From the NCBI GenBank assembly GCA_041690595.1, contig JAWLHB010000043.1:1-64000 (forward strand): 64,000 bases of DNA, written 5' to 3'. The notes below the pieces were generated by a model that was not told the origin of the DNA, searched no databases, and saw only the letters and a list, made by a program, of their open reading frames with translations. The position numbers and the translations under genes were made by a program. This document shows positions 366 to 13,865 of the stretch, in pieces (the stretch's first letter is position 1; each line of letters starts with the position of its first letter). Source of the DNA: Lentisphaeria bacterium. Its GTDB lineage: Bacteria > Verrucomicrobiota > Lentisphaeria > JABSQK01 > JAWLHB01.

Positions 366-3300
366 CTACTCGACCGGCTGGTAACCGGCCGGCAGGCGCT
401 CCTGGAGGTACTCAACCGCGTCCTGCATTCCCATTTCTTCCCGGTTGAAGTGCAGCGTCTCGGCGACGCGCAAGGTACCGCCCATGGTCGCCTGGCGGTA
501 GACCTGACGAATAGGTGCGTGATTCCACAACTCACCCGCCAGACTCCCTGGGAAGCTCTGCACGCTCCCCCCGCCGATGTTGGCGGAACGGTTCGCCCCG
601 TAGAGCAGCTTGAACTGGATGCCTCCGCTGGCGGTCGTCTGAGTCGTCTCCGCCGGATCGTAGCCACCCAGGAAGGTATAGCTATTGCTCCCCACCAGCA
701 GTTGGTAGTGGAAAGCAGTTAGCGGCGTCCACTCCTCGACCGTGTACCAGGAACCGGTGGCATCGCGCCAGGCGAGGAGCGCCCGCATCTGGCCGCTGGC
801 CAGATCGAGCACGATGTAGCCGCCGTAGCTCAAGTTATGGACCTCGCCATTCCCCGCGTCGAGACCACTGTAGCTCAGACTGTAGCAGACCAGCCCATTG
901 CCCGCCGTTGCCAACTTCGCCGCCGGTACCGGTTTCGCCTCGGCGACCGCCGCCCGTTCGCCGATGACAATGCCCATGGAGTCGGCAAGCTCAGCGAGAA
1001 GCTGATCAAAGCTCGTGTTGGCCTGGTTGGCGGTGCGGCTGGTAACCAGGTCGATCCTCGCGCTGAGCGTGGCGGCGCCATACGTTGTCGGTGCTTCAAC
1101 GCACTCACCGTAACGCCAGACGCCTGTGAAGGCGGCGACCACCTCGTTCGTCACACCGCCGATGTCGACTGGAACCCCATGCTGCGCGCCCATCAGGTGG
1201 GCGTAGTTGTAGCTGCCAACCAGATCCGTCGACCCGGCGATGGCGCCGTTGGTGAGGAACCAGTAGGTGGTACCTCCGCCTGTGTCGGCAGTGTACCACT
1301 CGCCCCCGTCATGCCAGTCCCTCCGGTCCCCGCTGCCATCAGCCCAGCGAACAAGCAGCGTCGCCAGCTTGTTCTCCAAATCCAGCACCGCAAAGCCATC
1401 CCCCGCAATAACCTTCGCCTGCCCATACTGCTGACCGCGTACAGTCAGCTTATAAACCACGTTATGAGTCTTTGCCAAATACTGCGCGGTGACCGTCAGG
1501 TGGCCATTGACGTTATCGAACGCCACGTCCCAGCCGGTAAAAATCCAATCGGTGTTGCCGACGACCGTCGGCGCAATCGCGTCATCACCATGGGTGACGG
1601 TCTGCACCAGTTCGCCACCGCCAGTACGCATCCCCTTGTCCGCAAGGTCGAAAGTCACGGTGTAGGTCGTCACCACGTACTGTGCCGTCACGGTCAGGTG
1701 GGCTGTCACGTTATCCAACGCCACGTCCCAGCCGGTGAAGGTCCAGCCAACACCGCCGACTACCGTCGGCGCCGTGGCGGCATCGCCATGGACGATGCTC
1801 TGCACCAGTTCGCCACCGCCTGTACGCGTCCCTTTGCCCGCAAGGTCGAACGTCACCGTGTAGGTGACCGGATCGACGATGTAAACGACCGTCAGGGTCA
1901 TCGCTTCAGCAACTTCAAAGGCGATCGCCCGGCTGCTCACCCCACCGCTCCACGAGGCAAAGGAGTACCGCCCAGCCAGCTCGCCCACGGTCTCGGGTGC
2001 TTCCAGAGCAACACCGGTTCCATGCGCCACGGTCATCGTATATGCAGTCGTCCCGCCGTGACCGGTTGAGGATCCAACCTGCACACCCGCCGTCGGCGTC
2101 GATGTCACGGTGACCTGATACTGGTTAACGTCATAGGTTGCCGTGACATCCACGCTGGCGATGACGTTGCTGTCCGTTCGTGGGTTGATCGTCAGCCCGT
2201 CACTCCACTGCACGAAGTGATAGCCCTCCTCGGGGACCGCCGCTACAGCCGTTCCATCAGCACCATGAGCAACTGTCTGGGTAATCTGGCCGCTGATGGT
2301 GCCATGGACATCGGCATGATAACTGACAGAATAGGTGTTGATGTCGAAGGTCGCGGTGACTGTATGATGGGAAGTTACATTGGCTTCGGTTCGTTCGGCG
2401 ACCGTCACTCCATCGCTCCATTGCACGAAGTGGTAGCCTTCATCTGGAACAGCCAGAACGGACGATCCACTGTTGCCGTGCTCCACCTGTTGTGTCGTTT
2501 CCCCCTCAAGCGTCCCATGCTCATCCGCCGCATAGGCGAGGTTGTAGACATTGATCGCGAAAGTTGCCGTGACATCCACGCTGGCGATGACGTTGCTGTC
2601 CGTACGTGGATTAACGGTCAGCCCATCGCTCCACTGCACGAAGTGGTAGCCAGTATCTGGCACCGCATTGACCGCCGAACCAGCGCTGCCGTGTTCGACA
2701 GTCTGCGAAACCTCACCAGTCAGCGAGCCGTTGTCGCTGGCGGCGTAAGTCAGGGTATAGCTGTTGATCGCAAAGGTCGCCGTGATATCCAGGCTGGCGA
2801 TAACGTTGCTGTCCGTACGGGGATTGACGGTCAGCCCGTCACTCCACTGTACGAAGTGGTAGCCAGTATCTGGTACCGCCGTGACCGCCGAACCATCGCT
2901 GCCATGGTTGACCGTCTGCGAACCCTCGCCGGTCAGTGAGCCGTTGTCGCCGGCAGCATAGGTCAATGTGTAGCTGTTGATCGCAAAGGTGGCGGTCACA
3001 TCGACGCTGGCAATGACGTTGCTCTCCGTTCGTGGGTTGACCGTCAGCCCGTCGCTCCACTGCGCGAAGTGGTACCCGGTAGCTGGCACTGCAGTTACTG
3101 CCGTACCATCGCTGCCATGCTCGATTGTCTGCGCAACCTCGCCAGTGAGTGAACCGTTGTCGCCAGCGGCATAGCTCACTGTGTAGCTGTTGATCGCGAA
3201 GGTTGCCGTGACATCCACGCTGACGATCACGTTGCCATCCGTCCGAGGATTAACGGTCAGCCCATCGCTCCACTGCACGAAGTGGTAACCAGTATCTGGC

Positions 3301-6300
3301 ACCGCCGTGACCGCCGTACCAGCGTTGCCGTGATTGACCGTCTGCGATATCTCACCAGTCAGCGAACCGTTGTCGCCAGTGGCATAACTCAGGGTATAGC
3401 TGTTGATCGCGAAGGTGGCGGTGACATTGAGGATGGCATTGATATTCGTGTCGGTACGACTGGCGGTCTCCACGCCGTCGCTCCACTGCACGAAGTGGTA
3501 ACCAGTATCCGGTACCGCCGTGACCGCAGTGCCATCGCTGCCGTGCTCAACTGTCTGCGAAATCTCGCCAGTCAGCGAACCGTTGTCGCCAGCGGTGTAG
3601 GTCAGCGTATAGCTGTTGATCGCGAAGGTCGCCGTGACCTCCAGACTGGCGATGATGTTGCTGTCCGTTCGCGGATTGACCGTAACGCCATCGCTCCACT
3701 GCAAGAAGTGGTAGCCGGTAGCTGGCACCGCGGTGACCGCCGAACCATCGCTGCCGTGATTGACAGCCTGCGAAACATCGCCGGTCAGCGAGCCGTTGTC
3801 TCCGGCGCCATAGCTCAATGTGTAGCTGTTAATCACGAAGGTCGCGGTGACCTCCAGACTGGCGATGACACTGCTGTCCGTACGAGGATTAACGGTCAGC
3901 CCATCGCTCCATTGAACGAAGTGATAGCCAGTATCGGGCATCGCGGTGACCGCCGAACCACCGCTGCCGTGGTTGACAGTCTGCGAAACATCGCCGGTCA
4001 GCGAGCCATTGTCGCCGGCAGTATAGGTAATGGCGTAGCTGTTGATCGCGAAGGTCGCCGTGACGGTAAGTGCTGCAATGACGTTGCTGTCCGTTCGTGT
4101 GGTGACCGTCAGCCCGTCACTCCACTGCACGAAGTAGTAGCCAGTATCTGGCACTGCGGTTATCGCCGAACCATCGTAGCCGTGATTGACCGTCTGCGAC
4201 GTCTCACCAGTCAGCGAACCGCTGTCTTCGGCGCCATAGCTCAATGTGTAGCTGTTGATCGCGAAGGTCGCCGTGACGGTAAGGGCTGCGATGACGTTGC
4301 TGTCCGTGCGTGGATTAACGGTCGGTCCATCGCTCCACTGCACGAAGTGGTAGCCAGTATCTGGCACTGCCGCGACCGCCGTACCATCGTTGCCGTGCTC
4401 AACCGTCTGCGAAATATCACCAGTCAGCGAGCCGTTGGCGTCAGCCGTGTAGGACAATGCGTAGATGTTGATCGCGAAGGTTGCCGTGAACTCCAGATTG
4501 GCGATGACGTTGCTGTCCGTGCGTGGATTAACGGTCAACCCATCGCTCCACTGCACGAAGTAGTAACCAGTATCTGGCACTGCGGCAATAGAAGTACCAT
4601 CGCTGCCGTGATTGACCATCTGCGAAACCTCGCCAGTCAGCGAACCGTTGTCGCCGGCGGCATAGCTCAATGTGTAGCTGTTGATCGCGAAAGTCGCCGT
4701 GACCTCGACGCTGGCGATGACGTTGCTGTCCGTGCGTGGATTAGCGGTCAACCCGTCACTCCACTCCACGAAGTGGTAGCCCACATCTGATACTGCAGTA
4801 ACCTCTGAACCAGCGCTGCCGTGCTCGACTGTCTGCAACTTTTCACCAGTCAATGAGCCGTTGGCGCCTGCCGCGTAGGTCAACGTATAGCTGTTGATCG
4901 CGAAGGTCGCCGTGACGGTAAGGGCTGCAATGACGTTGCTGTCCGTTCGTGGGTTGACCGTCAGCCCGTCACTCCACTGCACGAAGTGGTAGCCAGTATC
5001 TGGTACCGCCGTGACCGCCGAACCATCGTTGCCGTGCTCGACCGTCTGCGATATCTCACCAGTCAGCGAACCGTTGTCGCCAGTGGCGTAACTCAGGGTA
5101 TAGCTGTTGATCGCGAAGGTCGCGGTGACCGCCAGACTGGCGATGACGTCGCTGTCCGTACGTGGATTGACGGTCAACCCATCGCTCCACTGCACGAAGT
5201 AGTAACCAGTATCTGGCACTGCGGCAATAGAAGTACCATCGCTGCCGTGATTGACCGTCTGCGAAACCTCGCCAGTCAGCGAACCGCTGTCTTCGGCGCC
5301 ATAGCTCAATGTGTAGCTGTTGATCACGAAGGTCGCCGTGACATCCAAGCTGGCGATGACATTGCTGTCCGTACGTGGATTGACCGTAACGCCGTCGCTC
5401 CACTGCAAGAAGTGGTAGCCGGTAGCTGGCACCGCGGTGACCGCCGAACCATCGCTGCCGTGATTGACAGCCTGCGAAACATCGCCGGTCAGCGAGCCGT
5501 TGTCTCCGGCGCCATAGCTCAATGTGTAGCTGTTGATCACGAAGGTCGCGGTGACCTCCAGACTGGCGATGACACTGCTGTCCGTCCGTGGATTAACGGT
5601 CAGCCCATCGCTCCACTGCACGAAGTGGTAACCAGTATCTGGCACCGCCGTGACCGCCGTACCAGCGTTGCCGTGATTGACCGTCTGCGAAACCTCGCCG
5701 ACCAGCGAGCCGTTGCCGCTGGCGGCATAGGTCAACGTGTATGTATTGATCGCGAAGGTCGCCGTGACATCCACGCTGGCGATGACACTGCTGTCCGTAC
5801 GTGGATTGACCGTAACGCCGTCGCTCCATTGCACGAAGTGGTAGCCAGTATCTGCTACCGCCGTGACCGCAGTACTATTGCTCCCGTGCTCGACCGTCTG
5901 CAAAACCTCGCCAGTGAGTGCCCCGTTGTCGCCAGCGGCGTAGGTCAGGCCATAGCGGTTGATCGCGAAGGTTGCCGTGACGGTAAGTGCTGAAATGACG
6001 TTGATGTCCGTCCGTGGGTTGACTGTGGCGCCATCGCTCCACTGTACGAAATGATAGCCTGTTCCTGGCACCGCGGTTACCGCCGAACCATCGTTGCCGT
6101 GCTCGACAGTCTGCGAAACCTCGCCGGTCAGCGAGCCGTTGTCGCCTGCGGCATAGCTCAATGTGTAGCTGTTGATCGCGAAGATCGCCGTGACATCCAC
6201 GCTGGCAATGACGTTGCTGTCCGTGCGTGGGTTAACGGTCAGCCCGTCGCTCCAATACACGAAGTGGTAGCCCTCATCCGGCACCGCTGTGACCGCCGAA

Positions 6301-7196
6301 CCATCGCTGCCGTGCTCGATTGTCTGCGAAACATCACCGGTCAGCGAGCCGTTGGCTCCGGCAGCGTAGGTCAGGCCATAGCGGTTGATCTCGAAGGTCG
6401 CGGTCACATCCACGCTTGTGATGACGTTGCTTTCCGTACGTGGGTTAACGGTCAGCCCATCGCTCCATTGCACGAAGTGGTAGCCAGTATCTGGCACCGC
6501 GGTGACCGCCGAACCATCGTTGCTGTGCTCAACCGTCTGCGACGTCTCGCCGGTCAGCGAGCCGTTGTCGCCTGCCTTGTAGGTCAGGATGTAGCTGTTG
6601 ATCGCAAAGGTTGCCGTGACGGTAAGTGCTGCAATGACGTTGCTGTCCGTTCGTGGGTTGACCGTCAGCCCGTCACTCCATTGCACGAAGTGGTAGCCAG
6701 TAGCTGCCACCGCCGTGACCGCTGAACCATCGTTGTCGTGCTCGACCGTCTGCGAAACCTCGCCAGTGAGTGAACCGTTGTCGCCAGCCGCATAGGTCAA
6801 CGTGTATGTATTGATCGCGAAGGTTGCCGTGACGTCCACGCTGGCGATGACGTTGCTGTCCGTGCGTGGATTATCCGTCAGCCCGTCACTCCACTCCACA
6901 AAGTGGAATCCAGTAGCAGCAGAAGCCGTGACCGAAGCGCCGTCAGTGCCGTACGCGACCACCTGATGCGTTTCGCCTTCCACTGAGCCGTTCGCTCCGG
7001 CAGTGTAGCTCAGCGTATGTTCACGCATCTCCAGCGCGAATGCCTCAGACATTAGCGATACTGCAGTAATGGGCTTCGTCGAAAGCCAAAAGCGTGCTGA
7101 AGGTGTGCTTGTCACTTCGGCAGCAAAACAGTTTAGACATATTCCCGACAGCGCCAAGAAAACAAGAAAGAAACAGCGAGACCGAGTATAAGCCAT
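366..7196 (-). CDS. Giant secreted repetitive surface (stalk-like) protein with InlB-B/Flg_new-like repeats
   Basis: Signal peptide MAYTRSRCFFLVFLALSGICLNCFA (alternative start 7247). 23 x 71-aa repeats (GYHFVQWSDG), two TYTVTFDL..G.TFTGW repeats and two related C-terminal domains. Confidence 0.88.
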   Translation of the reverse strand: MAYTRSRCFFLVFLALSGICLNCFAAEVTSTPSARFWLSTKPITAVSLMSEAFALEMREHTLSYTAGANGSVEGETHQVVAYGTDGASVTASAATGFHFVEWSDGLTDNPRTDSNVIASVDVTATFAINTYTLTYAAGDNGSLTGEVSQTVEHDNDGSAVTAVAATGYHFVQWSDGLTVNPRTDSNVIAALTVTATFAINSYILTYKAGDNGSLTGETSQTVEHSNDGSAVTAVPDTGYHFVQWSDGLTVNPRTESNVITSVDVTATFEINRYGLTYAAGANGSLTGDVSQTIEHGSDGSAVTAVPDEGYHFVYWSDGLTVNPRTDSNVIASVDVTAIFAINSYTLSYAAGDNGSLTGEVSQTVEHGNDGSAVTAVPGTGYHFVQWSDGATVNPRTDINVISALTVTATFAINRYGLTYAAGDNGALTGEVLQTVEHGSNSTAVTAVADTGYHFVQWSDGVTVNPRTDSSVIASVDVTATFAINTYTLTYAASGNGSLVGEVSQTVNHGNAGTAVTAVPDTGYHFVQWSDGLTVNPRTDSSVIASLEVTATFVINSYTLSYGAGDNGSLTGDVSQAVNHGSDGSAVTAVPATGYHFLQWSDGVTVNPRTDSNVIASLDVTATFVINSYTLSYGAEDSGSLTGEVSQTVNHGSDGTSIAAVPDTGYYFVQWSDGLTVNPRTDSDVIASLAVTATFAINSYTLSYATGDNGSLTGEISQTVEHGNDGSAVTAVPDTGYHFVQWSDGLTVNPRTDSNVIAALTVTATFAINSYTLTYAAGANGSLTGEKLQTVEHGSAGSEVTAVSDVGYHFVEWSDGLTANPRTDSNVIASVEVTATFAINSYTLSYAAGDNGSLTGEVSQMVNHGSDGTSIAAVPDTGYYFVQWSDGLTVNPRTDSNVIANLEFTATFAINIYALSYTADANGSLTGDISQTVEHGNDGTAVAAVPDTGYHFVQWSDGPTVNPRTDSNVIAALTVTATFAINSYTLSYGAEDSGSLTGETSQTVNHGYDGSAITAVPDTGYYFVQWSDGLTVTTRTDSNVIAALTVTATFAINSYAITYTAGDNGSLTGDVSQTVNHGSGGSAVTAMPDTGYHFVQWSDGLTVNPRTDSSVIASLEVTATFVINSYTLSYGAGDNGSLTGDVSQAVNHGSDGSAVTAVPATGYHFLQWSDGVTVNPRTDSNIIASLEVTATFAINSYTLTYTAGDNGSLTGEISQTVEHGSDGTAVTAVPDTGYHFVQWSDGVETASRTDTNINAILNVTATFAINSYTLSYATGDNGSLTGEISQTVNHGNAGTAVTAVPDTGYHFVQWSDGLTVNPRTDGNVIVSVDVTATFAINSYTVSYAAGDNGSLTGEVAQTIEHGSDGTAVTAVPATGYHFAQWSDGLTVNPRTESNVIASVDVTATFAINSYTLTYAAGDNGSLTGEGSQTVNHGSDGSAVTAVPDTGYHFVQWSDGLTVNPRTDSNVIASLDITATFAINSYTLTYAASDNGSLTGEVSQTVEHGSAGSAVNAVPDTGYHFVQWSDGLTVNPRTDSNVIASVDVTATFAINVYNLAYAADEHGTLEGETTQQVEHGNSGSSVLAVPDEGYHFVQWSDGVTVAERTEANVTSHHTVTATFDINTYSVSYHADVHGTISGQITQTVAHGADGTAVAAVPEEGYHFVQWSDGLTINPRTDSNVIASVDVTATYDVNQYQVTVTSTPTAGVQVGSSTGHGGTTAYTMTVAHGTGVALEAPETVGELAGRYSFASWSGGVSSRAIAFEVAEAMTLTVVYIVDPVTYTVTFDLAGKGTRTGGGELVQSIVHGDAATAPTVVGGVGWTFTGWDVALDNVTAHLTVTAQYVVTTYTVTFDLADKGMRTGGGELVQTVTHGDDAIAPTVVGNTDWIFTGWDVAFDNVNGHLTVTAQYLAKTHNVVYKLTVRGQQYGQAKVIAGDGFAVLDLENKLATLLVRWADGSGDRRDWHDGGEWYTADTGGGTTYWFLTNGAIAGSTDLVGSYNYAHLMGAQHGVPVDIGGVTNEVVAAFTGVWRYGECVEAPTTYGAATLSARIDLVTSRTANQANTSFDQLLAELADSMGIVIGERAAVAEAKPVPAAKLATAGNGLVCYSLSYSGLDAGNGEVHNLSYGGYIVLDLASGQMRALLAWRDATGSWYTVEEWTPLTAFHYQLLVGSNSYTFLGGYDPAETTQTTASGGIQFKLLYGANRSANIGGGSVQSFPGSLAGELWNHAPIRQVYRQATMGGTLRVAETLHFNREEMGMQDAVEYLQERLPAGYQPVE
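2125..7020 (-). repeat. 23 tandem 213-bp intragenic repeats
   Basis: Unit INSYTLTYAAGDNGSLTGEVSQTVEHGSDGSAVTAVPDTGYHFVQWSDGLTVNPRTDSNVIASVDVTATFA. 23 WSDG motifs counted; span is about 23 x 213 bp. Confidence 0.95.
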
Positions 7197-7248
7197 AAAG
7201 GGAGCGATGAAGCAGATCAGTGTCATTGCGATAACCAGAAAAGACATT

Positions 7249-8427
7249 TTATTGTGGCGGAGGTATCGTGGAGCAAAGGCGAAAGCCATAGTAATCGGTA
7301 CGTATACTAACTTGGTTCCAAGTGCGGCTAACGACACGGCAAAAGAATGCGCTTCTATACCATACACCACCGCAAAGTAGACGCGATAACCCTTCACGAT
7401 CTGGGTGCCAATTCCAATTCCATTCCCAGACGTTTCCGGCCATTCCATAAAGGCCAAATCCGTTAGCCGTAAAAGCGTCCACCGGGTTGGTATATGGCAT
7501 TTCCCCTACCTCATAGTAAGGGTGATATCCGTCAGAGGGGCTTACATCATAGCCGTAGTCCTCACCAGCGTAATAATTGGCTTGGCTATGAGTGATTGTG
7601 TCTCCCCACGGGAACCGCTTACTCACGAGTCCACCACGAGCAGCATACTCACGTTCAACTTCGGTCGGCAATCGATAACCGTTAGCACTCCATTTGACCC
7701 ATTCATCCTCAAGATCAAGTTCTTCGGTTCTATAGATAGTTGTATGATCTTGGTTAGTATAATAGACTGGAGTCAAACCATCTCTATCACTGCGCGCATT
7801 GCACCATTTCACTGCATCATACCAGTTAATCTGTACGACGGGGTGATCCAATCCTTTCGCATAGCCAATTGGAAGATCAGGATATCCGTTCTCGACAGCC
7901 CAGTTTCTTACCTCATCCCATAGGGCTTTCGTGACTTGATACTTGCCAATGTAATAGGGCTGCACCGAGAGGGAATACTCGCCTCTGTCTGGATCCGTAC
8001 CCGCATTTGTGCCTGCAGGAATGGCAACAAACTCCTCACCTGCAAAGATGCTGTCGCTGGCGGTGACGCGCACCCGCATTTGGTCGGAGAACTGGCCGAG
8101 CCAGTCGGTGCCCGCGGCCCATTGCAGTGTGCCGTCCGTCCAAGCCGCCGTCGCTTGCACGGACGTATCGCCGGTGAGGCTCAGAACCGGCATCACGTCC
8201 CAAGTGGCGCCATCATCTGCCGAAGCTTGCAGGCCGATCACTAGCGCGTCGCTGTCTGCATCCAGGTATCGATAGGAGACATTCACCACCGTCGCTCCCC
8301 CTGACCCGGTGACTGAAATGCCTGTCACCTCCACCTGCGGGTCGGCGGCAAGGCCGGTGACAGCCAACGCGATCAGCGCCGATGCCAAGATGAGCAGTCG
8401 AAGAGGGATGAAATGAATACCGCGCAT
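7249..8427 (-). CDS. Secreted FGE-sulfatase (SUMF1, C-type lectin fold) domain protein with N-terminal Ig-like domain
   Basis: Signal peptide; HPVVQINWYDAVKWCN, YRLPTE.EREYAARGG, NGFGLYGMAGNVWEW and GFR motifs. Confidence 0.9.
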   Translation of the reverse strand: MRGIHFIPLRLLILASALIALAVTGLAADPQVEVTGISVTGSGGATVVNVSYRYLDADSDALVIGLQASADDGATWDVMPVLSLTGDTSVQATAAWTDGTLQWAAGTDWLGQFSDQMRVRVTASDSIFAGEEFVAIPAGTNAGTDPDRGEYSLSVQPYYIGKYQVTKALWDEVRNWAVENGYPDLPIGYAKGLDHPVVQINWYDAVKWCNARSDRDGLTPVYYTNQDHTTIYRTEELDLEDEWVKWSANGYRLPTEVEREYAARGGLVSKRFPWGDTITHSQANYYAGEDYGYDVSPSDGYHPYYEVGEMPYTNPVDAFTANGFGLYGMAGNVWEWNWNWHPDREGLSRLLCGGVWYRSAFFCRVVSRTWNQVSIRTDYYGFRLCSTIPPPQ

Positions 8428-10118
8428 GAGGTTGCCTCTTTTCCTATTTGAAAACTTCCGAACACCTTCCTGACAACATACTTCGACGGGGCAAGTGATT
8501 TTTCTGATATGATTCAGTAAATCGGCCGCGTTCAGTCTCCCATTCCCTTCCACCTGCTATTGCTAAGTTGCGGCGATACGTCACCACACCATGACCAATA
8601 TTTCCGCCAATAGATCATTATCAAGACTATTAAGAAAGTCTTTCGCAAAATTACCTTGATTTGCCATTCACCCCCACCCTGCTTGGAATCCGTTATGCTG
8701 CGCCACCTGTCAACTCCTCTCCCCACCCCCGTATCCCTGGTTCGCCCCGGCTGGCTCTTCGCTCCGCTTGGGCCGGCTCCACCGTCCACGCCTTCCATGG
8801 CTCACTTTGCTTAGTAACCGGACATAATGTCACCTCACTGAACCGGCGGCGCGGAGCAGATCCGGAAACCGTGGAAGCTGCCGCGGTAGTGGGGGTAGTT
8901 CGCATTGCGGTTGGCGGAACGGCAACCGCTGGCGCCGTAGTTCCAACCGCCGCCGCGCAATACGCGGAGCGAACTTGTGTCACAGCCTTCTGGATCGATC
9001 ACCGGGTCGCTGCCCAGATTCGTCACCCACACGTCCAGGCACCACTCCAAGACGTTGCCGTGCATGTCGTACAACCCCCACTGATTCGGCAGGTAGCTGC
9101 CTACCTTCGCCGTGCCCACTGAGTCGTCACTGCCCTGACTATAACCAGAACCGCCGTTGAACCGGTCACGGCCCACCACCGCCATGTTCGGACATGGATC
9201 CGACGTAGCCGTCAAGTTCCGCCCTCCATCGTCCCAAGGCGCATTCAATGCCTTGGTGGTGCCGGCCCGGCAGGCGTATTCCCATTGCCCTTCTGTAGGC
9301 AGATCAACGGCCAGACCGCTCTTTGCCCGCAGTTTCCCAAGGAAGGTGGTGCTTCCAGGCGCGCGGCTGCCGCCAGGCCACTCGCCGCCGCGTACGTCAT
9401 CCCACGAGACCATCTCCACCGGACGCCCATCACGGTAGGTAGTGTTATTGAAGTAGCTCGGCCACGTATCCATCACCCGCTCATACTGCTTCTGGGTCAC
9501 TGGAAAAACGCCCATATAGAAGTCCTGCGTCAGTGTCACCTCATGTTGGGTTTCGCGATCATCCACGCGGCCTAGTTCGCCTACCGGACTGCCCATGGTG
9601 AAGGTACTCGCCGGGATGCGGCGCAGAACGATTTTCGTGGTGCGGTACTCATCCGGGATCGGATTCGGCAGCACCGCCAGCTTGGTTACCGGGTAGCTCA
9701 CCGCATCCGGCCCGCCAGTGACGTCGATGACGAGATAGGTCCAGCTGTCGCTGGCGGTGACGCGCACCCGCATTTGGTCGGAGAACTGGCCGAGCCAGTC
9801 GGCGCCCGCGGCCCATTGCAGTGTGCCGTCCGTCCAAGCCGCAGTCGCTTGCACGGACGTATCGCCGGTAAGGCTAAGCACCGGCACCGCGTACCAGGTG
9901 AGGCCATCGTTTGCCGAGGCTTGCAGGCCGATGACCAGCGCATCGGCATCTGCATCCAAGTAGCGATAGCCAACATTCACCACCGTCGCTGCCCCCGAGT
10001 CGGTGACCGAAAGCCCCGTGACCTCCACCTCCGGATCGGCGGCAAGGCCGGTGGCAGCCAGGGCGAGCAGTGACGCCAAGCTGAGTAGTCCACGGCCTAT
10101 CAAATGAAAAACGCGCAT
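8050..10118. repeat. Duplicated ~375-bp segment (8050-8427 vs 9744-10118) encoding signal peptide plus shared N-terminal domain
   Basis: Long near-identical stretches, e.g. gctgtcgctggcggtgacgcgcacccgcatttggtcggagaactggccgagccagtcgg at both 8050 and 9744. Confidence 0.95.
8835..10118 (-). CDS. Secreted FGE-sulfatase (C-type lectin fold) domain protein, possible DGR target
   Basis: RBS AGAGGAG; signal peptide; FTMGSP, LPTEGQWEYACRAGT, NQWGLYDMHGNVLEW and RVLRGGGW...CRSANR...GFR motifs. Confidence 0.92.
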   Translation of the reverse strand: MRVFHLIGRGLLSLASLLALAATGLAADPEVEVTGLSVTDSGAATVVNVGYRYLDADADALVIGLQASANDGLTWYAVPVLSLTGDTSVQATAAWTDGTLQWAAGADWLGQFSDQMRVRVTASDSWTYLVIDVTGGPDAVSYPVTKLAVLPNPIPDEYRTTKIVLRRIPASTFTMGSPVGELGRVDDRETQHEVTLTQDFYMGVFPVTQKQYERVMDTWPSYFNNTTYRDGRPVEMVSWDDVRGGEWPGGSRAPGSTTFLGKLRAKSGLAVDLPTEGQWEYACRAGTTKALNAPWDDGGRNLTATSDPCPNMAVVGRDRFNGGSGYSQGSDDSVGTAKVGSYLPNQWGLYDMHGNVLEWCLDVWVTNLGSDPVIDPEGCDTSSLRVLRGGGWNYGASGCRSANRNANYPHYRGSFHGFRICSAPPVQ

Positions 10119-11105: not shown

Positions 11106-13772
11106 TTATTCGCCGAGATCCTGCTTGAGCCGCCTCTTCAGGGATTGGTAGTCCGCTTTGCCGGTGCCCAGCTTGGGGAGTTCGTCGATGCGTATCTGCC
11201 TGCCAATGCGAGCCAGATTACTGAAGCCGGCATCCTTGAGGAGCTGGTTGGCTTCGTCAACCGTGCAGTCGAAGGTCGCAAAGAGGGCGAGCAGGGGGCG
11301 CTCGTCGTCACGTTCGAGCGAGATGATGGCAAGGCGCGGCTCACCGTCCTCATCGGGGTACTTCTCCTTGAGGGCGGCCTCCATGGCGGGCAGGCTGATC
11401 ATCTCGCCGCCAATCTTTACGAAGCGCTTGAGACGCCCGGAGATGGTGAGGTTGCCTCCCTCGTCGAGAAAGCCCAGATCGCCGGTGACGTACCACTTCT
11501 TCTTGTCGACAATGTGGAAGGATTCGGTATCGGGATTTCCCAAGTAACCGGGGAAGATGTTCGGGCCGCTGGCGAGGATCAGCCCCCGCTCTCCCGTGGG
11601 CACAGGTTCGCGCGTCTCTGGATGGACGATGCAGAGCTTCACGTTGCTGATCGGTTTGCCGACTCCCACACGTTCTTCGCCGACCCGATTGAAGGTGAGC
11701 ACCGGTCCGGTTTCGGTAATACCATATCCTTCGAGAATATCGGCGTCTGATAGCTCGCCAAGGCGGCGGAAAAGATCCTCGGAAGCCTTTTCGGCGCCGC
11801 TGAGGATGATGCGCAGCTCCCGCAGAAGATCCGTATCACGCGCTGCGCGGAGGATACCGGAGATGAAGGTGGGCGTGCCGCAGAGGACGGTGGGCTTCCA
11901 GCCGCCGATGCCACGAGCCAGATGCCGACTCTCGGTGGGGTTGGGATAGTAGCAGGTCTTCAGTCCGGCCACCATCGGCAGCAGAGAGGTGACCGTGAAG
12001 CCGAAGGAATGGAAGGGGGGCAGAAATCCGTAGAGCACATCGCTGGAGTACAGCTCGATCGATTCGAGGGCGCCACGCAGATTGCTGAGTACGTTGAAAT
12101 GAGTCAAGGGCACACCCTTGGGGGCCGCCTCCGAGCCGCTGGTGAAGAGAATCACCGCATGCTGATCGGATTCCCAGGACTCCGTGCGATAGCGTCGGCG
12201 CAAGGACTCGGCGCTTCGCATGCCGTTCAACGCGGCCACCAGCTTCGCGCGGAGCGGCATCTGGCGCCGACGCACCTCCTCCAGCGTCCAGAGTTTCTCC
12301 TTGATCAGGTCGAAGTTGAGGCCGTCGAGGCGATCGAGAAAGCGAGCCGAGGAGATGATCACCCGGATTCCCGAGAGGTCGAGCACATGCTTGAGATTCG
12401 CATCGCCGAGGGTCCAGTTGAGCATCACCGGCGTCTTGCCAGCAACAAGGGTGGCGAGGATCACGAGGTCGGCACCGGCAGTGGCCGGCAGCATGATGCC
12501 GATATTGCGTTCCGGCCGCACACGGATGATGTCGGCCAGGAGGAGCACGCCGATCTTTGCCTTGCGATAGGTGATCACGCCACTTGTTTCGTCGCCGATG
12601 GCGACCGCGCTTCCGTAGGAATCGCAGACCTGAAAGAAATTTTCCTGGACGGTCAGGTGGGGATCGGGCACATGGATGTCGGGCCTTCCGCCGTCTTCGA
12701 ACCATTCATGCGGCACCTTCAGCTCGGCACCTGGATTCCTGTCGCCCAACTCACCGATCGCGGCAGCCTGCACATCCTGCACACTTTGCAGGTCCTCCAC
12801 ATTCACATCCATGCTGCCATATTCTTCCTCGATCCAACTGATCAGCTCGCCCAGATTCAGGGAGTCCATGCCCAGATCTCTGGAAAGAAGCATGTCGTCC
12901 CGCAGTTCTTCGGCATTGCGCCCGCTCAGTTCGGCGAGCTCGGCGGCGACCTTCTCCCTCACGTCATCCGGCACCTCCAGCTCGCGCAGCGCTCTCTCTT
13001 CGGCTCCTTTCGCCATCTGAAAGTAGTGGCGCCTCCAGAAGTAGTAGGATACCGGGACGGGCTCTTCGGGACCTGGGGTATTGTACCACGCTTCCAGCCA
13101 GCGGTTGATCTCCATCTTGTCACCGCGGCGGGGAAAGTCATCGCCGGGCACCTCGATTTCCACGCTCACTTTGCGCCGGGGCATGAAGAGGATAAGGTTG
13201 AGGATCAGGTACTTGATGGCGAGCATCAGCTTGATGCCCAGTTCGGGTCGGTGCTGGTTTGCGTACCAGGAGAACATGCTGCCGATCAGCCCTCGGGTAC
13301 GGACCAGGACGATGGGTTGATCGGGTCGGCGCTGCAGCAGATCGAAGACGGCGGAGGCCCCCTGCAACTGCTCTTCCTTGCTGCGCATCAGGCGACCGGC
13401 GGGATAAAGCAGCACGTTTTCGCCCCGATCGAGACGCTCCGCCACGCCATCCAGCCCTTCCTGTACGCGAAGCCGTTTGTAACTTCCCGAACGTCCCTCC
13501 ATATTCGGCATCGGTACCGCCCCGAAGAGCTTGAAGAGCCAGTGCAATCCGGGGGTATAGTAGAAATCCTCAACAACCATCGGCTGCGGCATGAGCCGGC
13601 GCCGGAAGACGGTCATGACGATAACCGGATCCATCTCGCTCGGGTGGTTAGGCAATATCAGCACGCCGCGTGAAGTCTGCACCTTTTCACGCCCGCGCAC
13701 ATCTATCCGGTATCGCAGGGCCAGCAGCAGACGGGTCAGCGATGCCAACAGCCATAGAAATCTTTTCTTCAT
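11106..13772 (-). CDS. Aas-like acyltransferase (PlsC) + acyl carrier + AMP-binding acyl ligase fusion
   Basis: NHPSEMD (HxxxxD) and YPAGR; ACP motif DLGMDSL; LFTSGSEAAPKGV, EGYGITE and WYVTGDLG. Confidence 0.9.
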   Translation of the reverse strand: MKKRFLWLLASLTRLLLALRYRIDVRGREKVQTSRGVLILPNHPSEMDPVIVMTVFRRRLMPQPMVVEDFYYTPGLHWLFKLFGAVPMPNMEGRSGSYKRLRVQEGLDGVAERLDRGENVLLYPAGRLMRSKEEQLQGASAVFDLLQRRPDQPIVLVRTRGLIGSMFSWYANQHRPELGIKLMLAIKYLILNLILFMPRRKVSVEIEVPGDDFPRRGDKMEINRWLEAWYNTPGPEEPVPVSYYFWRRHYFQMAKGAEERALRELEVPDDVREKVAAELAELSGRNAEELRDDMLLSRDLGMDSLNLGELISWIEEEYGSMDVNVEDLQSVQDVQAAAIGELGDRNPGAELKVPHEWFEDGGRPDIHVPDPHLTVQENFFQVCDSYGSAVAIGDETSGVITYRKAKIGVLLLADIIRVRPERNIGIMLPATAGADLVILATLVAGKTPVMLNWTLGDANLKHVLDLSGIRVIISSARFLDRLDGLNFDLIKEKLWTLEEVRRRQMPLRAKLVAALNGMRSAESLRRRYRTESWESDQHAVILFTSGSEAAPKGVPLTHFNVLSNLRGALESIELYSSDVLYGFLPPFHSFGFTVTSLLPMVAGLKTCYYPNPTESRHLARGIGGWKPTVLCGTPTFISGILRAARDTDLLRELRIILSGAEKASEDLFRRLGELSDADILEGYGITETGPVLTFNRVGEERVGVGKPISNVKLCIVHPETREPVPTGERGLILASGPNIFPGYLGNPDTESFHIVDKKKWYVTGDLGFLDEGGNLTISGRLKRFVKIGGEMISLPAMEAALKEKYPDEDGEPRLAIISLERDDERPLLALFATFDCTVDEANQLLKDAGFSNLARIGRQIRIDELPKLGTGKADYQSLKRRLKQDLGE

Positions 13773-13865
13773 GTTTCCTCGGGGTTCGACCGCGCTGTGT
13801 ACCAAACGTCCTGAATGTAAGGCCTTTTCCGGGAATTCCAAAAGTACTTACGAAGAGGATGCGAC

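Follow-up and report, generated by a model that had tools for sequence, protein, structure and literature searches.

In chaperone-usher pili, the tip adhesin carries a binding domain plus an immunoglobulin (Ig) domain that lacks its G strand, and this domain is completed by the N-terminal extension of the neighbouring subunit (FimH by FimG, PapG by PapF). In cellulosomes, a scaffoldin provides repeated cohesin-dockerin docking sites on one scaffold. Tip adhesins of Bacteroides type V pili are reported to have a C-terminal C-type lectin (CLec) variable region, to be joined by strand intercalation into the stalk, and to be diversified by diversity-generating retroelements (DGRs) (10.1101/2024.11.15.621889). 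Two further papers describe the Elr (WxL) and Pam (candidate phyla radiation) pili as polymers formed by usher-free donor-strand complementation with membrane-anchored chaperones (10.64898/2026.10.17.759780; PMC13278184). Here, we analyze a three-gene locus in a 64,000-nucleotide stretch from a Lentisphaeria bacterium (assembly GCA_041690595.1, contig JAWLHB010000043.1, positions 1 to 64,000; this whole stretch is “the window”). Two of the genes encode secreted “tip” proteins and the third encodes a giant secreted “scaffold.” From sequence comparisons and structural models, we think it probable that they form a docking system based on a split Ig fold.

In the mechanism we propose, a tip would be secreted with an Ig/FN3-like sandwich minus its G strand, fused to a payload (here a ligand-binding domain related to formylglycine-generating enzymes [FGE] and C-type lectins). 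The neighbouring large secreted protein would expose free G strands right behind its signal peptide, and each strand would zip, by donor-strand complementation, into the groove that flanks strand F in one tip. This would put the tips on the N-terminus of a long stalk of B-repeats, and a conserved C-terminal domain would hold the stalk at the cell surface. The scaffold would not polymerize, and its valency would be the number of strands (two here and often one to four elsewhere). We infer stable binding in vivo, simultaneous occupancy of the strands, the anchor role, and ligand binding or adhesion; the labels “adhesin,” “lectin,” and “distal end of a stalk,” which come from an initial annotation made from the letters alone, describe presumed roles in the same way. 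More broadly, we lean slightly toward the view that Verrucomicrobiota and their relatives have a plug-and-socket type of display system that has not been described before and does not polymerize, in which a portable acceptor clips any payload onto one to four strands of unrelated scaffolds. In some lineages, the payload would be a DGR-hypermutated CLec domain, which would make the display antibody-like.

Layout of the locus

The three genes are co-oriented on the minus strand, in the order tip 2, tip 1, and scaffold, and all three open reading frames (ORFs) are intact in the ORF list. Their signal peptides were judged by eye. Below, G000 is the source genome, C43 is the window contig, C7, C14, and C21 are other contigs of G000, and L followed by a number denotes a locus. 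The features are:

8835-10118, minus: tip gene 2; signal peptide, strand-deficient Ig acceptor, and FGE/CLec domain with a TvpA-like all-beta N-terminal extension (from the ORF, Pfam, an AlphaFold2 model, and a fold match)
9744-10037, minus: acceptor domain of tip 2; predicted Ig/FN3-like sandwich ending at strand F, 88% identical to the tip 1 domain
7249-8427, minus: tip gene 1; signal peptide, acceptor, and FGE/CLec domain, with the acceptor running directly into the first FGE strand
8050-8343, minus: acceptor domain of tip 1; without a Pfam family, and co-folded with the donor segment
366-7196, minus: scaffold gene (the giant); mature protein of about 2,250 amino acids, start codon uncertain (7247, 7226, or 7196)
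7074-7109, minus: putative donor G strand 1; degenerate, with Ser at the consensus Asp position
7023-7058, minus: putative donor G strand 2; degenerate, with Glu-Met for the consensus Asp-Thr
2121-7019, minus: B-repeat stalk; 23 copies of a 71-amino-acid Flg_new_2 / InlB B-repeat
1470-2120, minus: three divergent B-repeat-like units (Flg_new: 24 stretches)
369-1469, minus: C-terminal domain of 367 amino acids with no known family; presumed anchor or sorting domain

This layout agrees with the initial annotation, which had read three co-oriented secreted proteins, two FGE/CLec proteins that share a domain and then diverge abruptly, and a giant with exactly two motifs behind its signal peptide followed by 23 repeats. 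The domain common to both tips spans 98 amino acids at 88% identity, and the FGE-sulfatase domains beyond it are divergent. The two motifs of the scaffold lie just past its signal peptide and are separated by 17 amino acids. The repeats that follow are not Ig domains: they match PF18998 (Flg_new_2 / InlB B-repeat) in 23 stretches (E = 4.8e-245), and they are mutually divergent, with a mean DNA identity of 77% and a maximum of 96%.

The 367-amino-acid C-terminal domain is internally duplicated and has 29 matches in G000, where it ends many large secreted proteins. It had no match in 60 relatives, Pfam, NCBIfam, or Atlas, and its role may be that of a sorting or anchoring module specific to this lineage. 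In one protein (G000:C21:68077-70719, minus), an FGE domain close to that of tip 1 is fused directly to this C-terminal domain with no acceptor, a single-chain alternative to docking. As for tip 1 itself, its last conserved motif is degenerate, and the 3' end of its gene and the start of the scaffold (7249-7500) fall in the 2-kb block where the GC content of the window is lowest (0.54).

The acceptor domain and its G strand

The comparisons and models in this section show that the donor motif is a G strand, that the tips lack it, and that donors co-occur with tips. We begin with the tips. Both match PF03781 far above its cut-off of 23.3 bits (132 and 128 bits; E = 3.4e-38 and 8.4e-37). An AlphaFold2 model of tip 2 has a predicted local distance difference test score (pLDDT) of 91.7 and contains a beta sandwich at the N-terminus that ends with a strand at 90-96. 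The best structural match to the payload is TvpA (PDB 2y3c; Z = 32.0, root-mean-square deviation 1.7, 232 residues aligned), which covers model residues 98-397, and PvdO aligns to residues 97-397. Ig folds cover the model only from residue 1 to about 94-102 (best Z = 7.9). The strand lists and aligned ranges, from which we placed the groove beside strand F, support the prediction that the acceptor is an Ig/FN3-like sandwich that stops at strand F and lacks its G strand.

True formylglycine-generating enzymes have two active-site cysteines after RGGSW. Each tip has one cysteine in the segment that follows RGGSW, and all of the NCBIfam enzyme models scored below their cut-offs, so we do not consider the tips to be enzymes of this kind. 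The acceptor has no credible family by PDB sequence search or Pfam (the best hits, to oxalate decarboxylase and BNR at E = 0.019, were judged to be chance), and a homologue search with the single sequence returned only the window's own two proteins. An Atlas search gave unnamed clusters at 0.89-0.90. G000 has three copies of the acceptor, all in tips without an N-terminal motif, and the scaffolds carry none. A large secreted protein elsewhere in G000 (C14:871-8301, minus) has the signal peptide and the first acceptor strand only, followed by another domain; it is likely a recombination remnant of a tip gene.

To relate the donor motif (consensus S-x-x-F-x-[LV]-D-T-R) to the domain, we used a profile of the acceptor, which gave 473 representatives at 50% identity. 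Among the best 150 of these, a loose G-strand pattern comes after 346 of the 544 copies of the domain in multi-repeat proteins and after just 3 of 70 untruncated N-terminal copies. Of these three exceptions, two fall within the first FGE strand, and the third comes from a fragment of a repeat protein. The motif also occurs immediately behind a single domain in four cis fusions (L005, L012, L020, and L026), and in an insertion form it follows the FGE domain (L033 and the third tip of L078). L016 and L018 were left out of the alignments as false hits. Among the multi-repeat proteins are giants with 14-30 complete copies of the domain (P0003, P0004, and P0007, the last named from Patescibacteria).

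L033, with the order domain-FGE-linker-motif, allowed a comparison with the strand-deficient tip 2. In its AlphaFold2 model (pLDDT 91.8), the motif forms a strand at 379-388 (pLDDT about 81) behind a disordered linker, and strand F spans 84-96 versus 90-96 in the tip-only model. Ig/FN3 chains align over residues 1-388 of the L033 model. All 11 of the PDB Ig chains that were common to both fold searches extend 12-19 residues further at their C-terminal end in L033; for example, the range of 7nit is 183-288 with tip 2 versus 182-302 with L033, and that of 3cmg is 184-286 versus 183-300. It is thus a well-supported prediction that the motif is the acceptor domain's G strand, which completes the sandwich in L033. 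The initial annotation had proposed that the domain ends at strand F and that the motif supplies the missing strand, and it had suggested looking for fused homologues and for co-occurrence across genomes; the results above, and those that follow, bear it out on all four.

A scan of 301 genomes from the phylum turned up the acceptor domain in 44. In a wider search, it was found in 387 genome stretches, of which we took the best 78 loci, mostly titled Verrucomicrobiota, Lentisphaerae, or Kiritimatiellae. (The locus scan ran on a closer alignment, A7; the broad alignment A2 had no stretch that was usable for the scan.) After dropping four repeats (L090, L114, L131, and L151), we counted 74 new loci. 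Of the 50 loci for which 2 kb or more of sequence was available, 29 carry a motif in the same orientation no more than 4 kb downstream of the tip. None of the 50 has one on the opposite strand; upstream, a motif was seen in 2 of 60 loci, each time in a donor that belongs to the same cluster. Where all the domains of a locus are complete in cis (10 loci), no donor stands alongside. In-frame tandem arrays of the motif occur in just 2 of the 301 genomes, each time beside a tip gene; the DNA pattern for such tandems gave five genome hits, three of which (L170-L172) were not in frame and were dropped.

G000 itself has a second pairing, in which an acceptor plus FGE gene (C7:36978-38219) has a large secreted protein directly downstream. 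This scaffold has one consensus motif at its start and Calx-beta repeats, and it apparently ends, across an assembly gap whose joining we infer, in the same C-terminal domain as the giant. Among 28 examined ORFs that share this C-terminal domain, a tighter motif (S..F.[LVIM].[TM][RKT]) was found in only 2, and both lie directly downstream of one or more domain-bearing genes.

The window's own pair was modelled directly. Co-folding of the tip 1 domain with a 35-amino-acid donor segment in ESMFold2 reached a score of 0.56 (runs of 0.56, 0.70, and 0.46), and the best of three controls reached 0.02. Although 116 of 157 solved pairs and 2 of 215 mismatched pairs reached the co-folding mark, at 0.60 or below the mark came from just 18 solved pairs and both of the mismatches. 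Contact agreement between the runs was at least 0% (that is, the runs may share no contacts), the pLDDT of the partner was at least 56, and likeness to solved complexes of pilus strands with Ig domains could feed the score. The poor agreement may stem from the presence of two alternative motifs in the segment. The initial annotation had expected the stalk peptide to dock on the shared domain, and the models weakly suggest that the window's own donor peptide does so.

Both partners of the motif are combined with varied neighbours. In 31 hand-picked proteins, the payloads behind acceptors include FGE, Lcl_C, LamG, RCC1-like, DUF5050, and RHS/teneurin-like domains, and donor-headed scaffolds carry Calx-beta, CARDB, TSP3, MBG_2, or carboxypeptidase-regulatory domains (B-repeats in the window). 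Across 45 donor loci, we counted 22 with one tip and one motif, 20 with one tip and two to four motifs, and three with several tips and one motif. The initial annotation had expected the number of motifs to equal the number of tip genes. This fits the two loci of G000 (2:2 in the window and 1:1 on C7) and fails elsewhere: over the 45 loci, the two numbers show no correlation (Spearman rho = -0.23, p = 0.13). Motif arrays have a modal spacing of 18 amino acids, and some contain three or four copies. That one tip gene often stands beside two to four strands suggests multivalent display of a single tip.

Some loci depart from the common layout. In L034, L106, L110, L112, L121, and L132, donor motifs are dispersed among short repeats (TSP3 in L034) instead of being clustered behind the signal peptide. 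In L031 and L040, the acceptor heads a protein of about 2,000 amino acids (RHS/teneurin-like in L040), and the downstream partner, of 141-438 amino acids, has one donor strand. By eye, small PIN-like, nucleotidyltransferase/HEPN-like, or transposase-like ORFs are frequent in the gap between tip and donor across L091-L158.

For 152 ORFs with the domain, drawn from 139 loci, we also scanned the 3' end for template-like repeats. For 11 of these ORFs, we found a template repeat (TR) that differs mostly at adenines (17/17 to 24/28; also 18/18 and 19/19), which identifies them as DGR targets. Reverse transcriptase (RT) homologues were found in 13 loci; bAvd was above its cut-off in all three cases tested, as was RVT_1 in all three tested. 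The targeted tips are those of L048, L080, and L108 and of eight loci whose cluster also includes a donor gene. In seven of these eight (L096, L101, L125, L133, L145, L148, and L158), the tip and donor genes are separated by the RT and TR; in L128, the donor is upstream. Since DGR variable regions are reported to lie at the C-terminus of CLec folds (PMC8144416; 10.1101/2024.11.15.621889), an N-terminal dock would attach such a binder without blocking its C-terminal end. The window's own tips do not appear to be DGR targets: G000 contains no TR-like match, and its two RT matches are on other contigs.

Upstream of the tips, the window encodes a fusion of acyltransferase, acyl carrier, and AMP-binding domains (11106-13841, minus), which we take to be Aas-like. 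It shows no sign of membership in the docking system.

Evidence against docking and rival explanations

Several observations weigh against docking, and we gather them here with the rival explanations. The literal pattern S..S..F.L..[KR] matches 25 six-frame ORFs of G000 and so is not specific alone; since it is this common by chance, the case rests on position and co-occurrence. The co-occurrence counts have their own weaknesses. The motif pattern was widened after an earlier look at the data and the loci are related, so the Fisher p value of 1e-10 overstates the association, and the 45 positives include L053, which the script counted although its hit is internal and due to chance. The comparison with L033 is weakened because its Z scores are middling (7-9) and the two models are of different proteins, and the alignment behind the L033 model included nine cis-fused rows that could have steered it.

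The six-stranded domain might instead be stable and act alone as a spacer or by self-association, in which case the N-terminal motifs would be relics of gene splitting or have another role. Tip 2 was modelled confidently without any donor (pLDDT 91.7), and 80 of 125 strand-deficient loci have no donor within 5 kb, a count that includes loci truncated by contig ends. The strict motif is also absent from four of five tested genomes with orphan tips. Divergent donors beyond the reach of the pattern are visible in L036, L050, L058, and L069, but some tips may truly be donor-free. We consider this explanation unlikely overall, because relics would not persist as arrays of three or four copies at a modal spacing of 18 amino acids, because the motifs head unrelated scaffolds (Calx-beta, CARDB, TSP3, MBG_2, and B-repeat), and because the linkage of tip and donor is kept across an intervening DGR cassette.

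A somewhat less likely explanation is that the strand acts only for a time, as a chaperone in folding or export, so that the N-terminus of the scaffold escorts the tips during secretion and then releases them. Strand donation by chaperones is known for ElrE (10.64898/2026.10.17.759780) and PamC/D (PMC13278184), and some donors are small (such as the 141-amino-acid ORF of L040). Against release, the donor sequence is the same as that of the permanent cis G strand, and G000, with three copies of the domain and two donor proteins, has no second donor with which a strand could be exchanged.

Alternatively, docking may be right for the family while the window locus is decaying or asymmetric, so that one or neither of its degenerate motifs still docks. 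Against a profile of cis G strands, the window motifs scored 3.7 and -5.1 versus 24.6 for the consensus motif on C7. The co-folding of the window's own pair, described above, was also weak, and its runs agreed little in their contacts.

Two features of the tips also fit decay: the C-terminal region of tip 1 is divergent, and the two tip genes seem to have arisen by recent duplication, their signal-peptide and domain regions being 85% identical in DNA. On the other side, the three ORFs are intact, and both motifs keep the core S-x-x-F-x-L and the final basic residue. Their substitutions also have parallels in other donors: the Ser for Asp of donor 1 is found in the donors of L112 and L150, and the Glu of donor 2 in the donor of L032. 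We judge a decaying window locus to be about as improbable as the release of tips by a chaperone-like strand.

Finally, the YLVID-type strand of tip 2, a beta strand at 101-105 just past strand F, is very improbable as a cis source of the G strand: FGE/CLec structures align from residue 97-98 (TvpA at 98-397, PvdO at 97-397) and Ig matches end near 98, so this strand is part of the FGE lobe; tip 1 has no such strand; and elsewhere the strand co-occurs with donors in trans (L001, L074, and L079) or, in the third tip of L078, with a G strand at the C-terminus.

Comparison with known systems

The split-Ig docking system is apparently real and undescribed: we found no description of such a display system in a literature search, judged by titles and the openings of abstracts, that covered few subscription journals. 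If docking is true, it would explain the surface retention and avidity of many secreted FGE-domain proteins in uncultured Verrucomicrobiota, including those diversified by DGRs, and it would give a testable function to a common unannotated domain. In the DGR lineages, a constant multivalent scaffold would be paired with a hypervariable binder whose C-terminus must stay free. For protein engineering, it would offer a small natural split-Ig pair of peptide tag and catcher with tunable valency.

The window tips resemble chaperone-usher tip adhesins in that a binding domain is joined to an Ig domain that, in models, lacks strand G; here this domain would be completed by an N-terminal strand from the product of a neighbouring gene, a pairing for which the genomic co-occurrence is strong and the co-folding weak. 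We found no match to the outer-membrane usher (PF00577) in G000, which is 97% complete, and the same search was positive in an E. coli control. Chaperone-usher pili polymerize, whereas no subunit here has both a donor and an acceptor, so no polymer is expected. Also unlike those tips, several donor strands lie on one single-chain scaffold, and the Ig domain is N-terminal to the payload.

Type V pili are likewise reported to have a CLec tip protein joined to the stalk by a strand and a tip gene beside structural genes. Type V pilins are lipidated and enter the polymer by protease-assisted strand exchange, whereas here an Ig/FN3 fold is split and the stalk is one polypeptide; by eye, the window signal peptides have no lipobox (they have an Ala-x-Ala end and no Cys at +1). 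Type V tips are diversified by DGRs, whereas the window itself has none. With Elr and Pam pili, the proposed system would share donor-strand complementation without an usher and a constant attachment module with variable payloads, and PamT is reported to be an acceptor-only tip. Those pili are polymers, whereas the display proposed here is not. We recognized no gene for a membrane-anchored chaperone of the Elr/Pam type beside the loci by inspection, without a profile search.

As in the cellulosome, a portable module with varied payloads is combined with repeated sites on a scaffold; here the site is a strand of about 10 residues and not a folded domain, and the three window proteins have no Pfam hit to cohesin or dockerin. 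The FGE/CLec variable proteins of DGRs that resemble TvpA (2y3c) have the same payload fold, to which the window tips add a strand-deficient Ig dock. The giants with tandem Ig repeats (such as P0007, an “Ig-like domain-containing protein”) have the same domain complete with its own G strand, whereas in the window the fold is split over two genes. Donor-strand complementation is known as the means by which pili polymerize; here it appears to serve a scaffold of one chain as a modular code for docking.

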